A stretch of 57,868 bases of DNA, the filler included, from Sphacelaria rigidula (lineage: Eukaryota): NCBI GenBank assembly GCA_964200075.2. It is 7 parts of 7 records of this genome, joined end to end, with 100 filler letters (N's around TTAATTAATTAA, not from the genome) between each part and the next. Parts side by side here need not be neighbours in the genome. Positions count along the whole stretch, not along the records: positions 24,846 to 33,026 come from CAXNAA020011998.1; 6 more parts are not named here. The stretch is one strand, 5' to 3'. Of the stretch, positions 8,183 through 49,688 are shown piece by piece. The notes beneath the pieces were generated by a model. It did no database searches and was not told where the DNA came from. It saw only the letters and a list, made by a program, of their open reading frames with translations. Position 1 is the stretch's first letter. Every line of letters starts with the position of its first letter. Made by a program: the position numbers and the translations under genes.

Positions 8183-8282
8183 NNNNNNNNNNNNNNNNNN
8201 NNNNNNNNNNNNNNNNNNNNNNNNNNTTAATTAATTAANNNNNNNNNNNNNNNNNNNNNNNNNNNNNNNNNNNNNNNNNNNN
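8183..8282. other. Artificial contig linker (N44-TTAATTAATTAA-N44)
   Basis: Exactly 100 bp with a palindromic core giving stops in all six frames; recurs every ~8281 bp. Confidence 0.97.
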
Positions 8283-9925: not shown

Positions 9926-11069
9926 ATCGCAACATCAAGTGGTGTGTCACGAATCCAATCATGGTGGCAACAAAAAACGTACCCAAGGGAAATAAACAGG
10001 GAAAAAAAAGCCGAGAGTGAGGACATGAATTAAGAAAAAAGGAAGGAGAGTGTACGAAGGGAAAACCGAAGGACGGGTGAAATGGTTAAAACTAAAACAA
10101 AATGGGTAAACAAAGAAAACGTCAGGCCGACAACTACTACCGGTTATGAGCAAAACAAACCCGACAGGCTGCGACGAGCCTTTGATGGGACTATAGGTAA
10201 GACGAACGTACAAAAGCAGGGCCTGGGAGTCGGATTGCGAGTCGGCTATCTAGGGACAACGCCAATTGGGCAGGGACCCTTACCTCCGCAGTAGCGAGAC
10301 GAATTTCAAGCGGGACAAAAGTATCGACGCGATCCGGGGAAAGATAAATATGAAAGGGAGACACAAGTGGGGAAATTAAGGATCCTAGAGATGTAGCAGA
10401 AGATTCAGGGAAAAAGGATCAAGGGAACATTGCTGGGGCTACAAGTCAAGGGGAAATGGTAATAACACGATTGGATGACTTAGGATCACTCTGTGGACGT
10501 GGGACATTCAGACGTTGTAAGCATCCGACCTGATGATTTAGAAACGTGAGTCGTGGGAGGTCCTAATGCTATGTATTGTACACTAGTTTTCCGGCCGAAC
10601 ATGTAGGGTCGTCACAATTGTGCACGGTACCGTGGGTTGACTGACTGCATATACATACAACATAAATGTACTGATCTGTTCAACAGTAGACCCCGCTAAT
10701 GGTTGGTTCCCCATACCGTGTAGTAGTATGCCTCACGTGGTGGTAGTCAACGCACTTGTGCACAACCTGCCCATGAATTGGGCAAGACACTGCCAGTTGT
10801 ATTGTACTGATGAGACTGAAGTTGCTGTGCTAAAACACTGCCTGTGGAGGTTGAGTATTTCCTGCCCGTATCGTTCAACGATGATTATTGGCTAGGCACA
10901 CCTATATCAACACACTTATAAGGGTGAGCAGCGTTCTCTGCAACACCGTAAGTACACCTTGCAAAAGCACATGATTCTTTTGTTTGTGTCATCTCAGACG
11001 GCAAGGTGCACTACTATCGACACGGGTTTTTCGGATATCTCCAAAATTTCGGGACTGGCAAGGTACGTG

Positions 11070-11297
11070 ATGACCCCCGAACGCTTACGAGCAATAATTT
11101 CTAGTACAGGGATGGACCCGACGCAGTACGCGCTGCACTCCGGTAGGATCGGGGGGGCGACACATCTAGCGGCGCAGGGGGCGTCGCAACTGCAGATTCA
11201 GAGGGCGGGGAGGTGGAAATCACTGGCCTTCATGACGTACGCAAGAGCGGGGGGCGAAGGAGCAAAATTCGTATCGCAGGCACCCGCTGGGGAGTAA
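11070..11297 (+). mobile_element. Tyrosine recombinase C-terminal fragment (DIRS/Ngaro- or Crypton-like)
   Basis: YALHSGRIGGAT...IQRAGRWKSLAFMTY contains the HxxR, W and catalytic Tyr motifs; the N-terminal part is missing. Confidence 0.85.
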
Positions 11298-16464: not shown

Positions 16465-16564
16465 NNNNNNNNNNNNNNNNNNNNNNNNNNNNNNNNNNNN
16501 NNNNNNNNTTAATTAATTAANNNNNNNNNNNNNNNNNNNNNNNNNNNNNNNNNNNNNNNNNNNN
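16465..16564. other. Artificial contig linker
   Basis: Same 100-bp structure. Confidence 0.97.
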
Positions 16565-18599: not shown

Positions 18600-20241
18600 A
18601 TACCGATGTGACTTGCGACGAGGCTGGCGACGCGTGAAGATATAGATGCCGCTTTGCGCGAGCATCGCCCGCCGCACATCCCACCGGAATTCCCACAATG
18701 TCCAGCAAAGGATCTCAAGGTCCCCAACGGATACACGCACGCGGTGCGCTCGGAGCACGGTGATTTATTGAGGGACTCGATGGAGGGAATGGCGGGGAAT
18801 TCTGGAGGCGAGGACGATTGATTCAGCGGAAGAGCAACTCGTGGACAACTATATACATGCAAAGTGGGTATATAACTCGAAGGCGGACGAGTTTAGATGG
18901 CCCACGAAGATGAAGTCGAGACTAGTAGCAAGAGGAGATATGCAGAGGGAGAACATAGATTTTGGAGAGTTGTATGCCTCCACTGTAGCAGTTTCTAGCG
19001 CACGTTTGTTGGCGACTCTGGCTTGTGAGCAAAATATTGCGTTGCGTCATTTTTATATCGAACAAGCTTTTGTGTAGTCTAAGTTGGACGAGGACGTTTT
19101 CATGCGGTTGCCACTTGGTTGTGGAAGCTCATCTGGTAAAATAGTAAGACTCAACAAAAGTTTTTACGGATTGAAACAGGCAAGTAGGCAGCGGCATAAT
19201 CACCTGGCGGAGTGTTTATTTGTTTGGGGATTTGATCAGTGCTTGGCGGATTCATGTGTATTTCGGTTGATTGAGGATGGCAGGGTGATGATCACCATTG
19301 TAGTACATGTAGATGATATATTCGCAGTGGGAGAGAGGGACAGATGTGACGAGTTTGGTAAAGCTCTCAACAGGACGGTTCCAGTCAAGAACCTCGGGGA
19401 TTTGCGTTGGTATTCTGGACTGTACTATGAGAGAGAAATTGCAAGGGGGACTCTAAATATTCCACAAAAAACATACGCAGAAGAGTTGGCGAACGATTAC
19501 GGAATAGAGTGGGGAAAGAGTATCCCCATCGCTGTTGGTGTGAAGCTTGAAGAGTTCAGTGTAGAAGAGCAGGCAACGGAATTTCCATTTCGGGAACTTA
19601 TAGGGTCACTGATGTGGCTGGCAACTCAAACGAGGTCAGACATATATAACGCAGTACGTGCAGTAGCGAGGTACTGTGCCTCACCAAAACACCTTCGTTG
19701 GCGTGCTGCGCTTGGTGTTTTGGGGTATATCAAGCGAACAAGTTCGCTGGGGATTTCTTTTCGCAGAGGAAGTATACAGGGGCTGAGCTTTCATGTGTTT
19801 GCAGATGCCGACTACGCAAGTACGGCAGCTGATAGGCGATCGATATCAGGAGGGCTAGTGATGTGAGGAGGTGGATGTGTGTCTTGGTTTTCAAGGAGTC
19901 AGAAGTGTGTGACGCTGTCCACAACGGGAGCAGAGTACGTTGCCATGACAGATATTCTGAAGGAGGTATCGTTTTTGAGACAGGTTTGGCGTTTCATGTT
20001 GCCGTAGATGGGAATGCCATGCATCCCGGTGTTTGAGGATAATCAGGGAGCTATTGAGTTGGCAAAGCACCCAACCACGAACTCCAACTCCAAGCACATC
20101 GACGTACGGCATCATTTTATCAGAGAGTTGGTTGGGAGGAATGAGGTTTCGGTTATTCACGTGAGATCGGAGTATCAACATGCAGATTTCCTCACTAAAG
20201 TGTTGCCGATAGAGTCTTTTGAGTCTCATCGCAACCATTGA
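18600..20241 (+). mobile_element. Degenerate Ty1/Copia pol (RT plus RNase H)
   Basis: KSRLVARG, YGLKQASR, VVHVDD, FRELIGSLMWLATQTR, FADADYA, FEDNQGAI, SKHIDVRHHFIRE, QHADFLTK; several in-frame stops. Confidence 0.95.
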
Positions 20242-20721: not shown

Positions 20722-21330
20722 AGGGGAAGGACTAAAGGAAGGGGTTTCAGTTTGCTAAGTAGATGACGTTACCGTATGTCTGTACACGGGTGGGATGATG
20801 TTTTTTGTGCTTGGAAATATAGGATTGAATATTGTCGTTTTCGGGATGAATCATCCTTGTACACTCAGATGAAAATACGTCGATTAGGGTTTGAGACATG
20901 AGTAGAGTTGAGCCATGAGTAGGAGGGCTGATCGAGTATACTCACACTCAATGATAGATACATGTAAACAGGCCTGGATGCCAGGGAAGTGGATATTATG
21001 AGTGGATCATGACATATGGGTGAAGGGCAAATAAGAGATACAGTTCTGTTATTCAAGGTATACCCGATGTGTTGGTTGCAGCAAAAATCTGCAGAGAGGC
21101 ACACGCCCAATCGCGTGGCCAAGGAATCAGACTTTGACGTGTTATTTTTGCACGAGTGGTTTTTCATGATTGAACCCCGCCCCCTCTTTGGTAGTGCACT
21201 TGTTAGGTTTTGACGTTTTGGGTGGGAAGTGTAATATACATTGATCAACAAGGGAATCAATTCAACAACAGAGGTCCCACGACCTTTCTCAAACATAGAC
21301 CCTTGCGCCGAGGAGGAAATTCAGCCTTTA
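20722..21330 (+). mobile_element. PPT-like purine tract, LTR and PBS-like remnant downstream of Copia pol
   Basis: GAGGGGAAGG at 20722; ~20975-21330 is an inverted homologue of 17565-17950; CAAACA is followed by TAGACCCTTGCGCCGAGG. Confidence 0.6.
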
Positions 21331-23682
21331 ACACCTTTCCACCCCTCCAATCGCTGTGCCAATGCCTTCGACGCAGACGCCACGCATTCCTCCGGGTTGA
21401 AAATGTACGCTAGAATTCGGTGATCCGTGAAAAAGTGCACGCCATTCCACGATAGATGCTCGAGACGACCAAAAGTGCTCACGATAGCAAAACCTTCCTT
21501 GTCAAATGTTGCCCAACGCATCTGTGAGCCCTTGAAATTACCACTAAGAAAAGCCAGCAATTCAAGCGTCATGTCTTCAACCGGCAACCGTTGTTGCATT
21601 TCTGCGTCAGGAACCTGCGTTAGAAAACTACCCCAATGACACTCGGATGCATCCGGAAATATCAGCTCCTGGCAACCGGGGCGGGGATGGAACAGCGTCA
21701 TAGCATGAGCCACCATATCATTCGTTTCCGCCCATGCCTGCAGCCTGTCTTCCGTCCACGATGCGGGCGGAATAACGCGGTTTTTGGCCACCCGCTTCGT
21801 GCGCCTTGCAGCCCCCACCATGAGTTCTTCTAGGAAACCGCGCAAGGGCGCCACTACTTCGGCCATACGTAGCAGCGAGGTACGCAACCCCTTCATTACG
21901 TGCAGGAATTGCAACAGTTCTGCTGCTCCTTCTGGACGCCGCATGTTAAACAAACTTTACAAGCGGACCGGATCATGCGAGACGCGGCCATGTGAATATA
22001 CTTTCCCACACCACACTAATTCACCAGCAAAAAAGTTATAGTTGTGGGCAGCTGTAAACAGACCAACACTCTCTAAGCGAGCCAAGATTGCATCAAGCGT
22101 ATCCAACAATTCGTCTTCCGTATCCGCGAAGGAAGAGACATCATCCACTCAAATCTTGCATTTCAAGCCATCTAACAGGTCTACCATGACACCTTGAAAA
22201 TAGGAAGTAGCATTGAACACGCCTTGCGGTACTCGTCGCGGGGTAAACATGCCAAACGGAGTCGTGATGGTGAATATCTCTTGCGCCTCTTCGGCCAACG
22301 GCATCTGCCAGTACCCCTGTAGGAGGTCCAACTTACCGAAGCATCGCGCACTCAGCAGGTCTATCATATCGGATTCCTGATTGGGCATGACACCCAGCGA
22401 CTTCTCCATCTGATCATTGGATGGCTCCGTCATCGCTGACAAGACGGAAAGAGTCCTTCTTCGGCACCGCCATCGCTGAACTGGACCACACCGCCCGTAG
22501 ATTCCTGAACACCATCCCAAACGCCACAAGAGCTCCCATGCAAGACGCTAACCAACTGGACTTTACCGGATCATATCTCCTCGGTTTTGCCTTCACCGCG
22601 GCCGCCTCTGGCTTCAGTGTAACCCTCATGGGTTCCACGCGTGCATGGGGATCACCCATCAGCGCATGACAAAACGCGTCAATGTGGCGATACAATATGC
22701 CACGCAAGCGCTCCGCTTTTGAGATATTGAGGCCATTTGCCACAGCACCCGTCATGCTTTCCTCCGGCGCAGCCATTCGCGCGGACTCCTTTCCTGCCGG
22801 ATCCATAAATATACCGGGGCCACGCTTCACTAAGCGTCCCACCGCCCCATCACACTCCTCGGACACCTGCCCCCCCGTCTCCTGGAGAGCATCAACCGAC
22901 GAGCTCACTCTGCGACTGGCCAAAAAAGCAAGCGTTTCGACACCCGAACCGAGCGACGGCATTTGCGTTTTTAGGAACTCTAACAGCCGATCATACGAAT
23001 CGACTCCTAGTCCCCGAAGCGTCGGTAAGCCCAATAGAACTACACCATCCGTCCCCGGCATGATCGCAAACGATATCGGGGGTAATTTCGCTGGCCCCCA
23101 GGTAGTCCTGAACGCCAACTGTAGGGGAATCGTGCGCTCCGTCACATTTATATGCTGCCCCGATGCGGTAATGGCCTGCCGCGCCACGAGCGAGAACGGA
23201 ATGCGGATTTGCTCACCAGGGAGTAGACGCTCCAGCATTTCCACAATCAGCACCGACACGCTCGTGAAATGGGCGCCTGAACCCAACACAGCGTTGACCG
23301 ATATGGCTCCCCACGCCCGTTTATTTGGGAGGAAATATATTGATCCTCGACCGGCACCTGCTCCGCCGACTGATTTGTCGTTATCCCCACTTGGCGCCAC
23401 GGTTGCGCGTGCGGCGCAGGCATAGACACCCCCGCCGGGGTCACCGGCCCGCCGGCGGGTACGAAGCCCCGCCCGCAGAACCAAATTGCAGCGGTACTCC
23501 GGCCGACGCAGCAGCGAATCAAAATTTCAGCTGAAATCCGGCCTGTCTTACTCTGCTGCCGGCGGCGCCGGGACCGAGCCCGACACTAGGGTGGTCGGTC
23601 CCACCTGCACCGCCCGTTGCGGAGCAGCAGCCCCTGTGGCTGAGCCGGACCTAGAACCGGACCCCTGCTGACGCCGCTGCCC

Positions 23683-24745: not shown

Positions 24746-24845
24746 NNNNNNNNNNNNNNNNNNNNNNNNNNNNNNNNNNNNNNNNNNNNTTAATTAATTA
24801 ANNNNNNNNNNNNNNNNNNNNNNNNNNNNNNNNNNNNNNNNNNNN
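24746..24845. other. Artificial contig linker
   Basis: Same 100-bp structure. Confidence 0.97.
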
Positions 24846-25001
24846 CCCTGCTTGGCCTTGCGGCGCAGTGCTTATCGGACTCGATGGTCTGTTACTCACG
24901 AGCTCAAGGGTCATTCCTCTCGACTGCGATTGTTCAATGTGGCCAGCCGCTGACCTCGTGTCACCCCTGGCCGGGCGTGTTCTTTGAGAGTGACGCCAGT
25001 A

Positions 25002-25306
25002 TCACCTCGTGATCAGACCACGACACCTGTCCGTCCGAGCAAGACGAGGCACCACGCTCTCGATTCTCTCCACCAGGTTGTGCGCGATGCGGGCGCTTTT
25101 GGTGATCCGATCCCAATCTTTCGGTGTGGGTGTCATCTTGTTCGCTCTCGAATGTCTGTCGTGGTACGGTCGAAAATCGAGGATGAATGTTGTTTGGGTA
25201 CCGTCCTTGGGAGTTTTCATAAGCATCGCGATACATTCGAAATAAAGACACATCTGCACTCTCCGCCTGTGATGTGTGGCCTCGCTTATCCTCGAAAACA
25301 GCCACC
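25002..25306 (-). pseudogene. Tentative exon 4 of the ParB-like gene
   Basis: Acceptor ttgcag|G in phase 2 gives (MLV)RWLFSRISEA...PKDWDRITKSARIAHNLVERIE; internal structure and end are uncertain. Confidence 0.35.
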
Positions 25307-25704
25307 TGCAATTCGTGACCTCCGGTGTTTATACGGAACGATATCGTCCTCCAGTGATTCTGGTACAAAACACTGTTGATCTTATATTTTTTTTGCTACA
25401 ATGAGTGAGGTCACACATCACAGCCGGAGAATGTTTTTGCATTTTAATTTCGAAACCTTTTCGATGTTTATGAAGGTTCCCGAGGTTCGTCCCCTACCAA
25501 AAAATCTATCCTCAATTTTGAAGATAGACTGCTTCGAGCGGAGGGGGGGTATGTGTAGTTATACCCTGGATAATCGGTCCTGACGATCCATCAAACAGGA
25601 CACATACCACATGACACACTCTGGTCATCCTCCGGTGCGGCGAATTATTGGGAGATAACCCGAGACTATCACGACAAGCGACTGAATGTACCGGCGGTAC
25701 ATAC

Positions 25705-25924
25705 CTTACGAGCATATTGACGGCGATCGATTGCGCTGCGGGTTGGCGGGTAGATCGCCGTAGGCCTTGCTCTTCAGGTACGTCAGCGAAATACATTTCG
25801 CGTCGATACCGGGGTCCGACGTCTGGAACGCCCAGGAAATGGCTTTCATTGCTTCCGGTGTAGTGGCGAAGCAGACCTTTCGCCAGTGCCGCATCGCCCC
25901 CAGCGACAGAGAATTCAAACCCAG
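25705..25924 (-). pseudogene. Exon 3 of the ParB-like gene (LGLNSLSLGAMRHWRKVCF...), with an apparent 1-nt frameshift near 25740
   Basis: Acceptor aaacag|, donor AG|gtatgt; phase 0 matches exon 2. Confidence 0.55.
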
Positions 25925-26397
25925 CTGTTTTCGGTAACGAGGGGACACCAACGGACCGTGGAGAAAAACATATAGCAGATGCGGTGAATCCGAGTCGGCC
26001 GTTTCAGCGTCCGTGGAAGTTCGAAATGATTCATATTGCCGTACACAACTTCTCCCGACTGAACAGAATATCGGTACCGGTCCCCACATCGAATCGTCGC
26101 CCCCCCGTCGTGCGTGCTGCATTACATACGTGGTCGAGGTCTATCGTGTTCGCTGCACCCTGGATTGTTTCTCGGCGTATGACCGGGTGGGAGACACAGT
26201 ACACGCGTCGTAAACCCTCCGGCAACTAGTTTACAACAATATAAGCGGATTTGACTCGGTTCCGAGATGTAGCATAAATGATCCGCGGCGCACATATGAT
26301 ACAATACGACTTTAAACCTCACCCAATGCCCACTATCGTTCCCGTGTAATGCAGACCCGGTTTTGTAGTACCTCGTCTTTCACATTCCATTACTCAC

Positions 26398-26540
26398 GTT
26401 CGTGAACTCCTTTGCTATTTGTTCCCCCGTAACGGCATCACTCCCCGTCCTCTCCTGGACCGAGGTTATGATCCCAACGTGCATGTAAAGCTTGTCGTAC
26501 GTGTTGCGGGGGGACAGAGTCTCGCCGACATCGTTTAAAG
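26398..26540 (-). CDS. Exon 2 of the ParB-like gene (ALNDVGETLSPRNTYDKL...AKEFTN)
   Basis: Acceptor gaacag|, donor |gtgagt; phase 1 matches the exon 1 donor. Confidence 0.65.
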
Positions 26541-28296
26541 CTGTTCGAAGGCAGGCAGGCAGCAGCAACGATTGACGCGGTTATCATTCTCCGATGTTCC
26601 AGACTTTTTCTTTGAAAACATGTCCTCTCTGACGCAGCTGATGCTGGGCAACAACGATATAAATCTGTAAAGTCGTCTCTTTGGTCCTTCATATGTAATT
26701 CTGTATTCGCTCGGACGATCCCAAGACACTTTGCGTTTGAAGGCGGACAGAGGTAAAACATTTGCCAGACTCGTATGTTAGTCCGAGCACGGTCAGCCGG
26801 GAAACAAAACGCCCCGTGTTTCATCCGACAGACCGTTCTTGAGCAAAAATGCAATTGTTGCAAAAATCACCTGCGGCCACCGGAAAATGCAACGGTGTTT
26901 TGGAACCGTCTCAACGAGTGCAGCCATACAATCGCAGGTGTCAACATTCGCATACAAGGTTGTTCGTTCGGCCAAAAAAAAAAACGGCCACCAGAAAAAC
27001 GCGAAGGTGTCCTGCAATAGTCTTAACGGCTGAAGCACGACATTGGAAGGTGTCTGCGTTTGGGCCATAATCCGACGCATCTGGACCACATAAACAGTTC
27101 GTGACAGGTTATTCTTGCCTGCCATAAGAATCGGCATGAGAAATGGCGACAGCCGAGCTGTCGATTATGTCTGACTACACATTACTTGAGAACTGTGGCG
27201 TTGGAATCTGCTTTGCTTTGTTTTCGTTTCGAATCTGAGAATTGAACGAAAGGTCTGAACAAAATACGCCAAAAGACGTTCCGTCGATGACGATCGTCTA
27301 CTGCCCCCCCCCCCGCCGCCACTTCTTCGCACAGGGCCCGGAGAGAAGGGGGAAGATAATGAATGGCAAAATATTTGGACCAATCACAGCCTTGCCATGC
27401 ACAAAATGCGAGAAGGGCCCACCTTACCGGGATTAACAAAAGAAGCGAGAAACGAAACAGATTTCTGCCTTTTGTCGGAGAAAGACGGCCGTAAAACATT
27501 ATCGCAGAACAAAGAATAATAGAAGTTGGGGACTTTCGGGAAAACATCGCAGGTTTGTCGCAAGGCTCGCAGATATTTCCCGCAGGGACGACATTGGGTG
27601 TGCGAGACGCACGAAATCTCGCTGGCAAATATATGTATGCAAAACAACAACCAGAAGCACCCAGGCGCCGAAGCAAAGATATATGTGCCGGCATACTCGT
27701 GTCTGCGAAGTGTAGGGCCATTCTGTTTTTTTAGAGCCCGAAAAAGAGAAAAAGGCGCATGAAAACATTTGAGGTGCCGATTTCTTCTTTTTAGGGGCTG
27801 AAAAAGAAGAAAGGCACACACAAAAAAAAAGCGCAAAAAGATGACAAAAAGGCGCCGAATACGAAAAAAAAAAGAGGCGAAAGGCATGAAAACAGTACCC
27901 GAAAAACACGAGGAAAAGTAGCCAAGGATCCAAAGTCTACACCTCAGGCACACGCGAACCGTCGTTTGAATCATAGACCCGCGGACGAGCAGTGTTAGAG
28001 GCCGAGCCTGAATTTCTGGCGCTAAACTAGTGTGCAGCCACAACAACTCCCCCCCCCCAATGAGATAAGTCGTGACATCCCTGGCCGGTTCTCATCCTCA
28101 TGCACAGCGTACACGCTCAACCCCGACACGTTTTTTTCACATGCTTAAATCGGATGACTTAATCGTTATGTTGGCATTTTTTAAACACTAGGCCGTGCGA
28201 CAATTTTTTATCTTGCATCAGATAGTTCAATGTTCTCGAAACGATTGCGGAGGCACGTGGCTACAGACAATACCATCGGCCAATATTGTGACTCAC

Positions 28297-28708
28297 CGTC
28301 GCCAAGGATTCGCATGACCTCTGGCCAGAACTCATGGTACATTCGACACGGGACGCTGTGATCTTGCTCGAAAATCGATCTCGCCGCGGAGATCTCATGA
28401 TTTCCGTCCAAGACGCGAAACTCGCACGTCGAGAGAAACTCCGACGTTATTCCTCCATTCTCCGGAACACCTTCATGTGGCATCACTATGGCTGGCGGAT
28501 TGTGCGTGAGCCACCCCTTTGACTTCAACGAAGTGATGACCTTCTCCACTCCACGAGGGTTCAGCTCGCGGGTGAGGGACGTCACGGCGATTTGAGATAA
28601 CTTTATCGGAAAAGTACCTACGTAGTGGCTGGTGAGAAGGATTTCCATGTTCCGCTGTACTGGCGCTACTGTCCCTGACGGCTGACTTCTGACATCAGGG
28701 GAATCCAT
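28297..28708 (-). CDS. Exon 1 of a gene with a ParB/Sulfiredoxin-like N-terminal domain
   Basis: TRELNPRGVEKVITSLKSKGW...PAIV...FRVLDGNHEISAAR matches the ParB/Srx pattern (R-x-L...L-x-x-S-I-x-x-x-G...P-I-x-V...I-D-G-x-H-R-x-x-A); ATG at 28708; donor G|gtgagt. Confidence 0.7.
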
Positions 28709-29293
28709 TAGGCTGAAACAACGGTTGCCTGCTTCTTCACTGTTGTGGTATGCAGGCTGCGGGCGGTAGTGCAGTGGGTTGTGTAAGGGACGGGGGGGGG
28801 GGTGAGGTGAAGGAGGGTTGAGCAAGGGACGGCGAGAACGTTCTAATATTGCGGTTAGTTGCAGGTCACGATTGGGACACGTTACCTACCTTTATCCACA
28901 AGGACACCTGTACTCGGAATTCGACAACATATCTGGGTCATATCAGTCTCGCATGAGTACTAATGAGCCATATTCTTCGATAATGTATTGCTTGGTAGCT
29001 AGTACGACGGTATCTTTCTTACGAGCTCCACTTTCCGTAGGATGGTGACCCACTTGCCGCGTGCCAGGTGCCATACCACTGAAACAATCCCACCAGTCAG
29101 GTAGGTGAAAAGACCTAAAAATTCCGATATTTATCGACATGTATGTGTCCCATTCTCTGATCACGCTTCGGGTGCACATGGTCAGTTGTAACAGGACCAC
29201 AGGATGTTTGTCCCGAGATTCTGACGATCAGGGCATGTCGATTTGTGGTGTCGGAAAGATTGATCTAAACGTGGAACAACACCAACGTCGTCC

Positions 29294-29892
29294 TTGCTGT
29301 CCAAACATGACCACCCCGCCCACGCTGCCATAAACGTATTGGCGTCGCCTACTCTCAAACTCTCGCTTACCAGAGGAATTAGTGTGGGGCGTGCGTTTAT
29401 GCCGATTATAGAGGCGGGCCGCCTCCTGTTCGTGACCTCGGTTGAACCCACAGAGCGGAGCATCGAATCATGTGGGCATACGGGCGGCTTAACTCCAAAA
29501 AGAAGGCAAGAGCAATCCCCTCTCGAGTCGATCGTTCCGGTGGCGGGTGCAACTCTCTCCACACAGCCTATTGCGCTGCAAGATATGCTTGCATCGAGTT
29601 TCGAGTGCTGTCGCAGTCTACGCTTTGTTGAACGGTTCGTAGAAGGGACGCTTGATGCTCAGAGGTTGGCGTCGGAGCAAGAGGACCTCAGTCGTGTCGT
29701 CGCGCGCAAAGCAAGACTGGCTTGGGTTCGAGAGCACGTGCCGTATCAGAAACCCTGTAAAAACATAGGGTCAATGCATGCTTCTGACGGCGTGATGTGT
29801 AATCAGTTCTTCACAAGAGCGTTTGCTGTGTCGAAGAACCTCGTTGAGAACGCCAAGAAAAACCCGGGTGCTCCATCGGTATCAAGAACCAC
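29294..29892 (+). CDS. Cys-motif ORF/exon, possibly the N-terminus of a DNA transposase
   Basis: 200-codon open frame with FECCRS...VMCNQFFTRAFAVSKNLV ending at a gtgagt donor; divergent from the ParB-like gene; no catalytic domain visible. Confidence 0.45.
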
Positions 29893-30960
29893 GTGAGTAT
29901 CTTATATCTCGTCGTCAAGTTTGGGCAGATGTGTGACTCCCGCGGTCGTGTAGCAAAGCGAACATATTATGTAGATTCCACATAATATACGGCGGTACTG
30001 TACTAGGCAAGCTCGATGTCAAAATAGATCCAAAATGTGTGTTACCACAGCCTGCTGTGACCGTGCTTTACTGTAGCGCCGGCCGACACATACCGGCGTA
30101 CTGTTTCTTGCCGTCGTACCCAGCCAAAACATTCAACATGTGTGACTGGATTGGTCCGCAGTAGGCTTCGGACGGGTGTGAATTCGCCGGGGCGCATCTA
30201 GGAACAACCGGTACAGGTTTGAATCTTAAAATCGATTACTGTATCCAGTTGTACTGTTTTGCGGCCGGGGTCCGCCTCGGAACAGTTTCACCGGCTGACA
30301 GTCCAGGAACATTCGCGGGTTTCCAGAGGGCAGGCGGGTTCGACGAACAGCCGGAGAGCTCAAGACGTCAACCATTTGTTTTTGGAAGTAAAGACTCCGC
30401 TCGCAGTATATGGGTCCACCTGACCCTCCTTGCGTTGCCAGCATAGCTTCACACTGTCTGTAGTGTTGTTGGGAAACACGAAGCAGAGACATCAGCAGCG
30501 TGCATGTAACTACGGAAACTGAAAGGTGCTCGTCGAAGACATACTGTTACATACTGTACTGGCTTTGCATGAACTCGACTGCGGGGTCAAAACCGGTCAA
30601 GAACTTTCCTGTATTGCTGTCTATGCATGTGTCCTACATTCACATGTTCATGAAAAATGCGTGTGGTATTATGACGGAAGAATGATTCTGAATCTCGAAC
30701 ATGGCATGGTCCAACCCAGTCTACATGCGGTTTTGTCGTGCCACATCGACACATGGAGCACCTCTAAGGGAATCTGCACAGTGGCCGCAGGCGGCGCATA
30801 GGCAATATGCGCAATTTTTGCGCATGATATGCCCACTAAGCGTTTCACAACCAAAAACATGCGTCTTGAAAAACACAGAATTATGCAAAGCCTTAGGCGC
30901 GCATAAGAGGTGAAAGCCTAAATATTATTGCTCAATTGAGTTTCTCACCGTGATGCGCTC

Positions 30961-31430
30961 GTAAGACTCTATTCGTGATATTCAGAGGGTAGTTTCAGAT
31001 TCAGAGTGGATGCTCTAGCGTTCCCGACAGGATTTGTTTTTTGTTTTTTTTGGGCACACGTGCTGTGCATGCAGCTACCGTACAGTACCCCATTCGAGTA
31101 TTTCGGTGGTCTGATTGGTGAGATACTGCACAAAGCATTTTTATGCCTGGGGGGGGGGGCATTTCGGAACTGAAACTGTTTCAGGCACTAATCAGTTTTT
31201 CCTGAAAGAGCGGATCTTTTGTTGCAATGGGCTGACTACGTAGCTGCGATCAAGTGATGTTGTGTCAAATTGATCGTGAAGGTGACAGCTTTCATTGAAG
31301 CCACAGCTTCACCAGCCGGGCGCACTACTCCTCGAACTGTGGCGACATCAAAATCGACGGGAAAGTCGATTGTTTCGGGTCTCTCCCTGAATCTGAAACT
31401 ACCCTGTGAATCTCACGGATATAGTGTTTC
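30961..31430. mobile_element. MITE with ~44-bp imperfect TIRs
   Basis: ATTCGTGATATTCAGAGGGTAGTTTCAGATTCAG (to 31004) is inverted at CTGAATCTGAAACTACCCTGTGAATCTCACGGAT (from 31387) with 3 mismatches in 34 bp. Confidence 0.75.
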
Positions 31431-33026
31431 GGGTGTTCTATCAGGGGCGACGGTGGACCACGCGACGGCAGGGATCCTGTTCACCGAAACAAAATCNNNN
31501 NNNNNNGTACGGACAAAGCATGCCGCACCAGAAAGCTATATACTTCTACATGAGAAACAAGCAGGTGGGTAAATGTTGGTCGCGCTTGTACAGCCATTGT
31601 TTCGGTCTCGCTTCTGGACTGATATGTGTGTGTGGGGGGCTCTCGCGGCATCACTCACGATAAACCGCGTCTTATTTTTGTTTCGTTTTTTTTTTTTTGC
31701 CAAACCATTTGAGGAGGCAGTTGGTAAATATCGTTTCGATTTGTGTTTTTGCTGGGCTAGAGGTACGAGCCTGGAACATCTCGATCCCCGACGGTGTTCA
31801 TAGTCTTCGATTCCAATTCGAAATGCTGGACCACCGACTACCCCTTAGCGCATCTAGCACGCGATTTCGGAAATTGAGCACAGTTTTTACGGAGGAATAA
31901 CCTTGGGAACCGCCACAAGCATAAAAAATCTTTCGAAATAAAATTACAAATGCACTCTCCGGCTGTAATGGGTGGCGTGCTCATCATGGGAGAAAACGCC
32001 GGTCATTTGTAAAATCCCGTGTTTTTCAGGGGGTTCTGGAATACAAGAGCAGTGTAAGAGACAGGAAGGACCGGAGGATGAACTTGTTCCGTGTAAGAAC
32101 AGGATTTCACAAATTGCAGACGGACTATTGTTCAGGAGGAGCCACGCCACACGGCACAATGGAAGAGGGCAGATTCTTTTTTGTATTGCGGAAATGTAGC
32201 GATGCTTACGAAGGTTCCCAACGCTCAACCTCAATAAAATATCCATCCCCAATTTTCAATATCGCGTCCAATCTGATTCAGTTCAGAAGTCGGATCCATC
32301 CCCCCCTGCGAACAGCGTCGCAGAAAGAGGCAATGCGGTGGATGACAGTACAGATATACGCGCCACGCCCAGGACGCAGCGCATCGTGCTTGTGTACTCG
32401 TTGTTTGCCTTCATGCGCACGCTGATGTTGCGCTAACAACTTCATGCGCGCGCACATTTTCCTAGCCGTGTGGCGTAACTCTCCGGCGTTGTGGGCTCAA
32501 TTTCCTGCGCACGAGCCCTTGAAACACGCGACCACCTTACATCCCCAATGACAGAAAGTGTACGATGCGTTCGTGGAGGATATGCGTAGTACGGGAGGGG
32601 GGGTGGCCGCAAGTCTCAGCTAATTTTACACCACGGTGCGCAAGGACCGACCCCACTACAAGGCCAAGGACGGCGGCACATTCATGAAGTGTAACGCGTG
32701 CACTCTGTACCATGACACCCTTAATGGAAGTTCTGGTGTGAGGGTCACCGCTGACCCCGGCAAGATGGACTAGGTCGCTATGGAGCAGAAGGCGCACTTG
32801 CATGTGAGTCGTCTTCTCGTCGAAATTGTCGGCAGCTCGTCATGTTACCGGAAAAACGAGGATACGCAATTCGTGAGATTACGCCATGAATAGCATCCAA
32901 AGCAGCGCAGGTGCATCGAATTAGTCGAGGGGAGGATATTGCCCGACCATTATATAACAGCCGATTTTATTTTTTGGGGTTCATACAAAATATGGGGCTG
33001 AAGTGGCATATCTGTCTTGCACGAAA

Positions 33027-33126
33027 NNNNNNNNNNNNNNNNNNNNNNNNNNNNNNNNNNNNNNNNNNNNTTAATTAATTAANNNNNNNNNNNNNNNNNN
33101 NNNNNNNNNNNNNNNNNNNNNNNNNN
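33027..33126. other. Artificial contig linker
   Basis: Same 100-bp structure. Confidence 0.97.
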
Positions 33127-41307: not shown

Positions 41308-41407
41308 NNNNNNNNNNNNNNNNNNNNNNNNNNNNNNNNNNNNNNNNNNNNTTAATTAATTAANNNNNNNNNNNNNNNNNNNNNNNNNNNNNNNNNNNNN
41401 NNNNNNN
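41308..41407. other. Artificial contig linker
   Basis: Same 100-bp structure. Confidence 0.97.
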
Positions 41408-49588: not shown

Positions 49589-49688
49589 NNNNNNNNNNNN
49601 NNNNNNNNNNNNNNNNNNNNNNNNNNNNNNNNTTAATTAATTAANNNNNNNNNNNNNNNNNNNNNNNNNNNNNNNNNNNNNNNNNNNN
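49589..49688. other. Artificial contig linker
   Basis: Same 100-bp structure. Confidence 0.97.

Follow-up and report, generated by a model that had tools for sequence, protein, structure and literature searches.

The window examined here, a stretch of 57,868 nucleotides from the brown alga Sphacelaria rigidula (assembly GCA_964200075.2), carries on its minus strand a gene whose predicted product resembles bacterial ParB, together with an open reading frame (ORF) that points away from it on the plus strand. The window is composed of seven separate contigs of ~8.18 kb each, joined by 44+12+44-base spacers, and features on different pieces are therefore not linked. Runs of N are found at 8183-8282, 16465-16564, 24746-24845, 33027-33126, 41308-41407, and 49589-49688. 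The ParB-like gene lies on one 8181-base contig (CAXNAA020011998.1, window 24846-33026), interrupted by a 10-N gap at 31497-31506, and because this piece is a single contig, the sequence context stops at 24846 and 33026. An earlier note, made from the sequence alone, had described a minus-strand and a plus-strand ORF that diverge from each other and both end at splice donors, and this arrangement was found as claimed: a minus-strand ORF of 205 codons occupies 28208-28825, with the ParB ATG at 28708; a plus-strand ORF of 200 codons, named after a "Cys motif," occupies 29294-29896; and GTGAGT donors at 28296 (minus) and 29893 (plus) are both used in RNA-type contigs.

The structure of the ParB-like gene was traced with the Logan contigs of four public runs (X1, X2, X6, and X7) aligned to 24846-31496 (6651 bases, 30 bins). 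X1 and X2 act as DNA runs, in which introns are covered and intron-skipping joints are lacking; X6 and X7 act as RNA runs, with depth of ~0 in bins 26622-27731 of intron 1 and with joints having canonical ends. Coding exon 1 (28297-28708, minus strand, as are all the exons and introns of this gene) is indicated by the ORF, the homologues, and the fold, and encodes a ParB/Srx-fold N-domain with the motif DGNHE. It is followed by intron 1 (26541-28296; GTGAGT..AG, 1756 nt), which is defined by the RNA-only joint 26540>28297, and in which a low-complexity stretch holds a 235-codon open frame that is due to chance. Exon 2 (26398-26540), assigned from RNA joints and homology, encodes a linker and the helices with which the second domain begins, and intron 2 (25925-26397; GT..AG, RNA-only joint) leads to exon 3 (25705-25924), which encodes the helix-turn-helix (HTH) region and contains a frameshift near 25742-25744; residues 207-263 of the relative P0106 match 25930-25760 with an E value of 2e-7. 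Beyond intron 3 (25156-25704; GT..AG, RNA-only joint 25155>25705) lies a further coding exon (25025-25155; RNA joint, loose ends) homologous to the relatives P0033 and P0106, with its donor GT at 25024-25023. A minor isoform additionally uses an intron in the 5'-untranslated region (5'UTR) at 28732-29370 (GTAAGC..AG, 639 bases), for which the RNA-only joint 28731>29371 (ends CT..AC) has a depth of 73/79, and the preceding exon, which extends upward from 29371, is untranslated because it contains in-frame stops. The "~600-bp spacer" from which the two genes were said to diverge does exist, with 585 bases separating the ParB ATG from the start of the plus-strand ORF, but most of it is taken up by an intron of the ParB-like gene.

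At the other end of the gene, the RNA contigs of X6 and X7 leave the contig at 25025, just before the GT, with 213-255 further letters that are absent from it. The mRNA therefore continues into exons off the contig, and the publicly deposited model of the locus, P0001, probably owes its last residues to intron read-through. P0001 (301 amino acids), whose residues 1-138 are 99% identical to exon 1, also bridges the exon-3 frameshift with a gap of ~20 bases, a pseudo-intron, within window 25005-25757. The present analysis corrects this model, in which the frameshift is skipped via the 20-base pseudo-intron and the real donor is read through. The family to which the gene belongs is transcribed and spliced.

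The fold of the product was compared with known structures by using AlphaFold models of exon 1 and of the 301-residue product, Foldseek searches against the PDB, and VIA-align. The exon-1 model, with a predicted local distance difference test score (pLDDT) of 88.8, gave 20 matches at E≤1e-3, the best being 6sdk_A (5.6e-5), and all Foldseek matches listed, down to rank 48, belong to the ParB/Srx superfamily, namely ParB, Noc, KorB, PadC, sulfiredoxin, SbnI, and serine kinase. In VIA alignments with seven ParB/Noc/PadC entries, the N-domain superposed with Z scores of 10.0-10.2 and root-mean-square deviations (rmsd) of 2.1-2.5 Å over 86-93 residues; for ParB bound to cytidine di- or triphosphate (CDP/CTP), the values were Z 10.2 and 2.1 Å over 89 residues. 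The model of the 301-residue product has a pLDDT of 75.7 overall and of 81-93 over the HTH region (residues 146-210), and in searches with this model two-domain chains of ParB, Noc, and KorB rise to the top with 220-273 aligned columns. Two-domain VIA alignments were obtained with 5k5d_A (173 residues, model 20-230), 6t1f_B (148 residues, model 32-231), and 7nfu_B (138 residues). Model residues 146-210 alone match the HTH domains of sigma region 4, TetR, and HapR with Z scores of 3.7-5.6, values at which helical matches are common, and the support for the HTH domain is accordingly moderate. The N-domain and HTH alignments therefore point to the layout of ParB, Noc, and KorB, in which an N-domain is followed by an HTH domain, and, judged from these models, the product of the minus-strand gene is a ParB-type protein that combines a ParB/Srx-fold N-domain with an HTH domain. 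The motif DGNHR of the family is presumably the counterpart of the Gly...Arg phosphate-binding motif that follows strand 3 in this superfamily and reads GERRxR in ParB and GCHR in Srx. No significant repeated site or binding-site array was found beside the gene on the contig, and two parS-like candidates, a 24-base imperfect palindrome at 28313-28336 and an 18-nt direct pair at 28776/28815, were dropped, with about 0.3 such palindromes expected by chance per 8 kb on a rough estimate.

An exhaustive HMMER search of 1.84e9 representative proteins for relatives of the ParB-like ORF returned 101 proteins at E≤1e-3, 37 at ≤1e-10, and three at ≤1e-30, with P0001 as the top match. The named relatives come from Ectocarpus, Pylaiella, and Cladosiphon, those of Cladosiphon being 777-876 amino acids long. 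P0033 (843 amino acids) and P0105 (876 amino acids) have the ParB-like domain at the N terminus and further regions C-terminal to it, and homology to P0033 and P0106 spans all 301 residues of the product. In an alignment of 51 sequences, the D, G, and H of the motif LDGNHR are invariant and the R is present in at least 90%. P0101, which matches the low-complexity N terminus only, is probably a false relative. In P0085, a 431-residue model from Ectocarpus sp., the ParB-like domain is placed at 330-429, behind ~300 residues that have no Pfam family, possibly because two adjacent genes on the same strand were fused in the model. The C terminus of P0033 bears a likeness by eye to a degenerate N6/N4 methylase, but the likeness is supported by no tool and we make no claim of it. 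A word-indexed search with the family alignment found no longer relatives, a weak negative given that the known 843-residue relative was also missed. Among 255 pattern matches in a scan of JGI metagenomes with a four-sequence alignment, none was confirmed, and no relatives of P0001 were found in IMG/VR. P0033 matched nothing when compared by tblastn with phage (E≤1) and plasmid (E≤10) records, and a link to prokaryotic ParB-methylase proteins could therefore not be shown.

The copy in the window is dead and is truncated by the contig. At 28394-28396 it has the Glu codon GAG where its relatives have Arg, giving DGNHE instead of DGNHR, so that the Gly...Arg-type feature of the motif is kept by the family and not by this copy. 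In exon 3 it has TT at 25742-25744, compared with TTT in part of the other copies, the extra T at 25742 accounting for a depth of 7056/27665 in X1 and 1654/3832 in X6. As a result of the frameshift, the frame of this copy stops at 25706-25708, and the region homologous to the relatives goes on past the shift in another frame. The Glu in place of Arg, the frameshift, and the location of the 3' part off the contig together show the copy to be a fragmentary pseudogene from a family that is expressed. The earlier note had stated that the gene appears to decay downstream; the exon-3 frameshift agrees with this, but the gene does not fade out there, because it runs on through three more RNA-supported exons and the donor at 25025.

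Not only the exons but the whole aligned stretch belongs to repeated DNA. Short DNA contigs align to the 6651 bases in large numbers (4615 in X1 and 4622 in X2) and cover all 30 bins, including introns and flanks; among those of X1, 895 are at least 99% identical to the stretch, 1414 are 95-99% identical, and 2306 are 90-95% identical. Single variant positions in exon 3 are each found on 16-17 distinct contigs. Among the joints seen in DNA only is one that marks a deletion of 2157 bases (26570-28726), by which the ParB exon is lost; its depth is 5691 in X1 and 1453 in X2. One cluster of relatives has 45 members at ≥90% identity, the 15 listed being located on contigs that range from 36 kb to 1.6 Mb. 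Because copy number cannot be read from summed contig depth, we claim no more than "many diverged copies." Smaller repeats are embedded in the contig. A MITE-like element (MITE, miniature inverted-repeat transposable element) of ~470 bases at 30960-31431, recognized by inverted-repeat search and DNA depth, has 45-nt inverted ends that are 87% complementary; its summed DNA depth of 9e4-2e5, compared with 1e3-4.5e4 elsewhere, is the highest of the contig (5-100 times), and up to 92 distinct contigs cover one variant site in it. Inside intron 3, blastn revealed a small inverted-repeat element composed of an inverted pair of a ~80-nt unit (25205-25492), a second copy of which lies at 31894-32221. 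The inverted arms 25412-25492 and 31894-31974 were rejected as termini of a large element, because they belong to these two copies of the small inverted-repeat element and mimic repeats spaced 6.4 kb apart.

Comparable genes are known from transposons of other algae. The 21.5-kb Ectocarpus transposon Sola1-1_Ec32 carries, opposite the transposase strand, a gene for a protein of 1104 amino acids that combines a ParB-like domain with a DNA methyltransferase, and the authors cite similar proteins in transposons of green and red algae (PMC12477816). As far as that description goes, the Sphacelaria gene is alike in its occurrence in a brown alga, in the N-terminal position of the ParB-like domain, in being a long, multiexon, transcribed gene, and in its location in repeated DNA; it differs in that no transposase, termini, or methylase domain is visible and the contig ends inside the gene. 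In the red alga Bostrychia, PAG3 of a Plavaka (EnSpm) element is described as having an N-terminal ParB-like domain (best HHpred match 7BNR chain B) and a 2-oxoglutarate (2OG)-dependent oxygenase, with homologues in Mutator, Zisupton, and Fanzor elements (10.1101/2025.02.11.637652). There, too, the ParB homology can be recognized solely with structure or profile methods, and 7bnr_A ranks with the best matches of the present model. PAG3 is a passenger of a large DNA transposon proposed to bind its own element, and a corresponding role may be shared by the gene described here. In contrast with PAG3, the present gene belongs to another algal lineage, shows no 2OG domain, and is not accompanied on the contig by a tandem inverted-repeat array. 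Earlier, Iyer, Zhang, and Aravind (2016) reported ParB-type HTH domains fused to Dam-type methylases in chlorophytes and chytrids (PMC4738411). Those proteins are similar in being eukaryotic, in having a DNA-binding module that derives from ParB and is of prokaryotic or phage origin, and in their link to DNA modification, while a full ParB/Srx N-domain is found in the present family and a methylase is seen only in theirs.

The likeness to the bacterial CTP clamps ParB, Noc, and KorB (6sdk, 7bnk, 7bnr, 7ol9, and 8qa9) extends over the fold of the N-domain (Z ~10, rmsd 2.1 Å), the HTH domain that follows it, and the Gly-x-x-Arg-type motif at the equivalent place (DGNHR in the family). The present gene is distinguished from them by an identity of 9-16%, by the lack of Pfam and PDB sequence matches, by its eukaryotic host and its introns, and by the Glu that replaces Arg in this copy. 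To our knowledge, no ParA partner or parS site is known for the ParB-like family. Since Sphacelaria presumably belongs to Sphacelariales and not to Ectocarpales, the ParB-type passenger genes of algal transposons would, if the assignment made below is correct, extend to a second, distant order of brown algae. The family is moreover transcribed and has, according to the models, the full ParB layout of N-domain and HTH domain and not just a vague "DNA-binding domain." Nevertheless, ParB-like passenger genes of algal transposons were already in print in 2025, with precursors in the work of Iyer et al., and the locus adds little beyond them; the suggestion that the element is "little-described" was only partly true.

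On these grounds we regard the contig as one decayed, truncated copy of a high-copy repeat, which is most likely a large DNA transposon with a ParB-type passenger gene, an assignment that we make with moderate confidence. It is called a transposon because of the copy number, the deletion variants, and the precedents. The idea of the earlier note, that a ParB-like protein serves as an accessory protein of a eukaryotic DNA transposon, was thus right in kind, given a ParB-type gene, a high-copy repeat with internal deletions, and published precedents, but the partner transposase that it assumed is unsupported. By analogy with ParB, KorB, Noc, and the published algal cases, the intact protein would bind specific sites of its own element via the HTH domain. 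The N-domain may act as a nucleotide-gated switch or clamp, as it does in ParB, KorB, and Noc, and the protein might thereby bring a C-terminal effector to the DNA or chromatin of the element.

Several points tell against this interpretation. No transposase, terminal inverted repeat, or target-site duplication is visible on the 8181-base contig. The ParB likeness that the earlier note had proposed is borne out by Foldseek and VIA at the level of the fold, but it has no counterpart in Pfam or PDB sequence searches: the minus-strand ORF has no Pfam match at E≤1 and no PDB sequence match by phmmer or profile; when the ORF, the profile, and P0105 were compared with PDB sequences, only chance-level rows were returned; Pfam ParB_N (PF02195) is matched by none of the 51 family members at E≤10; and the only Pfam matches among these members are below threshold (GmrSD_N in four, DUF6551 in two, DUF3723 in two, and DndB in one). 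P0033 and P0105 likewise have no Pfam match at E≤0.1, hence no Pfam methylase, and no PDB sequence match. The RNA nature of X6 and X7 is a guess of the tool, for which their intron-skipping joints are the sole support, and all four runs are represented by Logan contigs, from which neither strand nor copy number is directly measured. With respect to the plus strand, the GC contents of the ORF at the three codon positions (0.575/0.485/0.565) do not mark it clearly as non-coding, DNA depth has maxima at 29286-29507 and 29730-29951 like those over true exons, and the donor at 29893 is used in RNA-type contigs, and hence something functional may be present at 29286-29951 or at this donor.

The region of the plus-strand ORF, which overlaps the 5'UTR exon of the ParB-like gene and is divergently transcribed, is indeed expressed, but no evidence of a transposase was obtained from it. 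It could be supposed that the plus-strand transcript is the start of a transposase gene placed head-to-head with the ParB-like gene, with one bidirectional promoter for both and with catalytic exons that are off the contig or decayed. An RNA-only joint at the GTGAGT donor 29893 (depth 110/97) would fit such a gene, as would the RNA-type depth at 29286-29507, which is the highest on the aligned stretch (6617/4252 in X6/X7) and coincides with a DNA peak like those over exons, and the placement of the ParB-methylase gene opposite the transposase strand in Sola1-1_Ec32 (PMC12477816). The open frame itself is of some length: when the contig was shuffled 300 times by mononucleotide, a frame of at least 210 codons arose in 14 shuffles, which makes the length only borderline above chance. 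The sequence of the ORF, however, gives the supposed transposase little substance. Pfam assigns it to no family at E≤1, a word-indexed protein search returned no relative in the length ranges 110-350 and 351-2000 amino acids, and its Atlas language-model recognition is 1651, below the 2300 reached by 91 of 100 known-family proteins, with a best match of 0.83 that has no family; the ORF also seems to be absent from public annotation, because no self-match was returned in the protein searches. Nine further open frames to the right of 29594 have no credible Pfam match at E≤10, the best value of 0.057 being far under the cut-off. Moreover, the 224-base segment that holds the Cys motif (29505-29728), whose length is not a multiple of 3, is lacking in other copies in the genome and in the RNA form that predominates, as indicated by the joint 29504>29729 in X1, X2, X6, and X7 (4558/2956 joined versus 221/96 inside the segment); when it is removed, no plus-strand frame spans both halves, and the frame is not kept among copies. 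The plus-strand intron (29893-31418), seen in RNA-type runs only, begins with the GTGAGT donor and has GG here, not AG, at its acceptor. In the joint 29892>31432, the 12 intervening letters are identical to 31419-31430, so that 29892 is in fact joined to 31419, and the acceptor sits in the right arm of the MITE-like element at 30960-31431. With no family, no homologue, a weak Atlas score, and a frame broken by a 224-base indel, the "transposase-like" label given to the ORF fell away, and a transposase gene seems to us an unlikely source of the transcript. It is possible that the transcript is the 5'-untranslated start of a gene whose body is off the contig, and a transposase core may conceivably exist that is very divergent or lies beyond the contig.

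Two other explanations concern the ParB-like gene itself. It might belong to a lineage-specific host family of brown algae, for example of chromatin proteins, that happens to be located in repeat-rich DNA and is not a passenger. The annotation of the locus as a gene (P0001) and its expression with canonical introns would be expected of a host gene, and although relatives from other genera are only 23-48% identical, many of the models share the exon boundary between ...GDG and E, which suggests old vertical descent. A host family, on the other hand, does not readily account for introns, UTR, and flanks that are repeated like exons (30/30 bins, thousands of contigs, 90-99% identity), for deletion derivatives without the ParB exon, for the frameshift in the window copy, or for a relative cluster with 45 near-identical members on many contigs; the published brown- and red-alga cases are also transposon-borne (PMC12477816 and 10.1101/2025.02.11.637652). 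We therefore consider a host family improbable. An origin of the gene as a piece of an integrated giant virus, such as a phaeovirus-type provirus, is far less credible still. ParB-like domains are common in viruses and phages, and brown algae are reported to carry many viral inserts (PMC12993054), but at least four spliceosomal GT..AG introns are used in RNA, no relative was found in IMG/VR (searched with P0001) or in phage records (searched with P0033), and no viral hallmark gene is present on the contig. A large DNA transposon with a ParB-type passenger gene thus remains our preferred assignment.

A wider distribution of such genes is hinted at by the Atlas neighbours of the exon-1 domain, which include unnamed clusters of cnidarian and molluscan origin and one from Ascomycota, where DUF3723 (PF12520) is present in 31% of the members. 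DUF3723 is a conserved gene of Starships with the predicted function "Unknown," and it was likened by its authors to chromosome-segregation genes; a literature search found no paper with both "DUF3723" and "ParB." One might speculate, with considerable doubt, that proteins combining a ParB fold and an HTH domain form a widespread, largely unrecognised passenger or helper class of giant eukaryotic mobile elements. If this were true, a ParB-type module for marking or tethering their own DNA would be common to the giant elements of brown algae, red algae, and fungi.

Some minor features were also noted. On the contig of the ParB-like gene, the plus-strand segment 32624-32806, with CxxC, an in-frame TAG, and GTGAGT, looks like an exon of some decayed gene; as a candidate plus-strand exon it was set aside, having no Pfam match at E≤10. 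It lies outside the run alignment. On other contigs, an open frame at 10896-11294 (plus strand) resembles by eye, at its end, the C terminus of a tyrosine recombinase of the DIRS/Ngaro or Crypton type, with no Pfam match at E≤0.001. A Copia-type reverse transcriptase is encoded at 19078-19863 (plus strand; RVT_2, 1.8e-16), and a piece of a retrotransposon at 21324-22547 (minus strand) matches RVT_1 (7.2e-8) and RT_RNaseH (8.6e-11).

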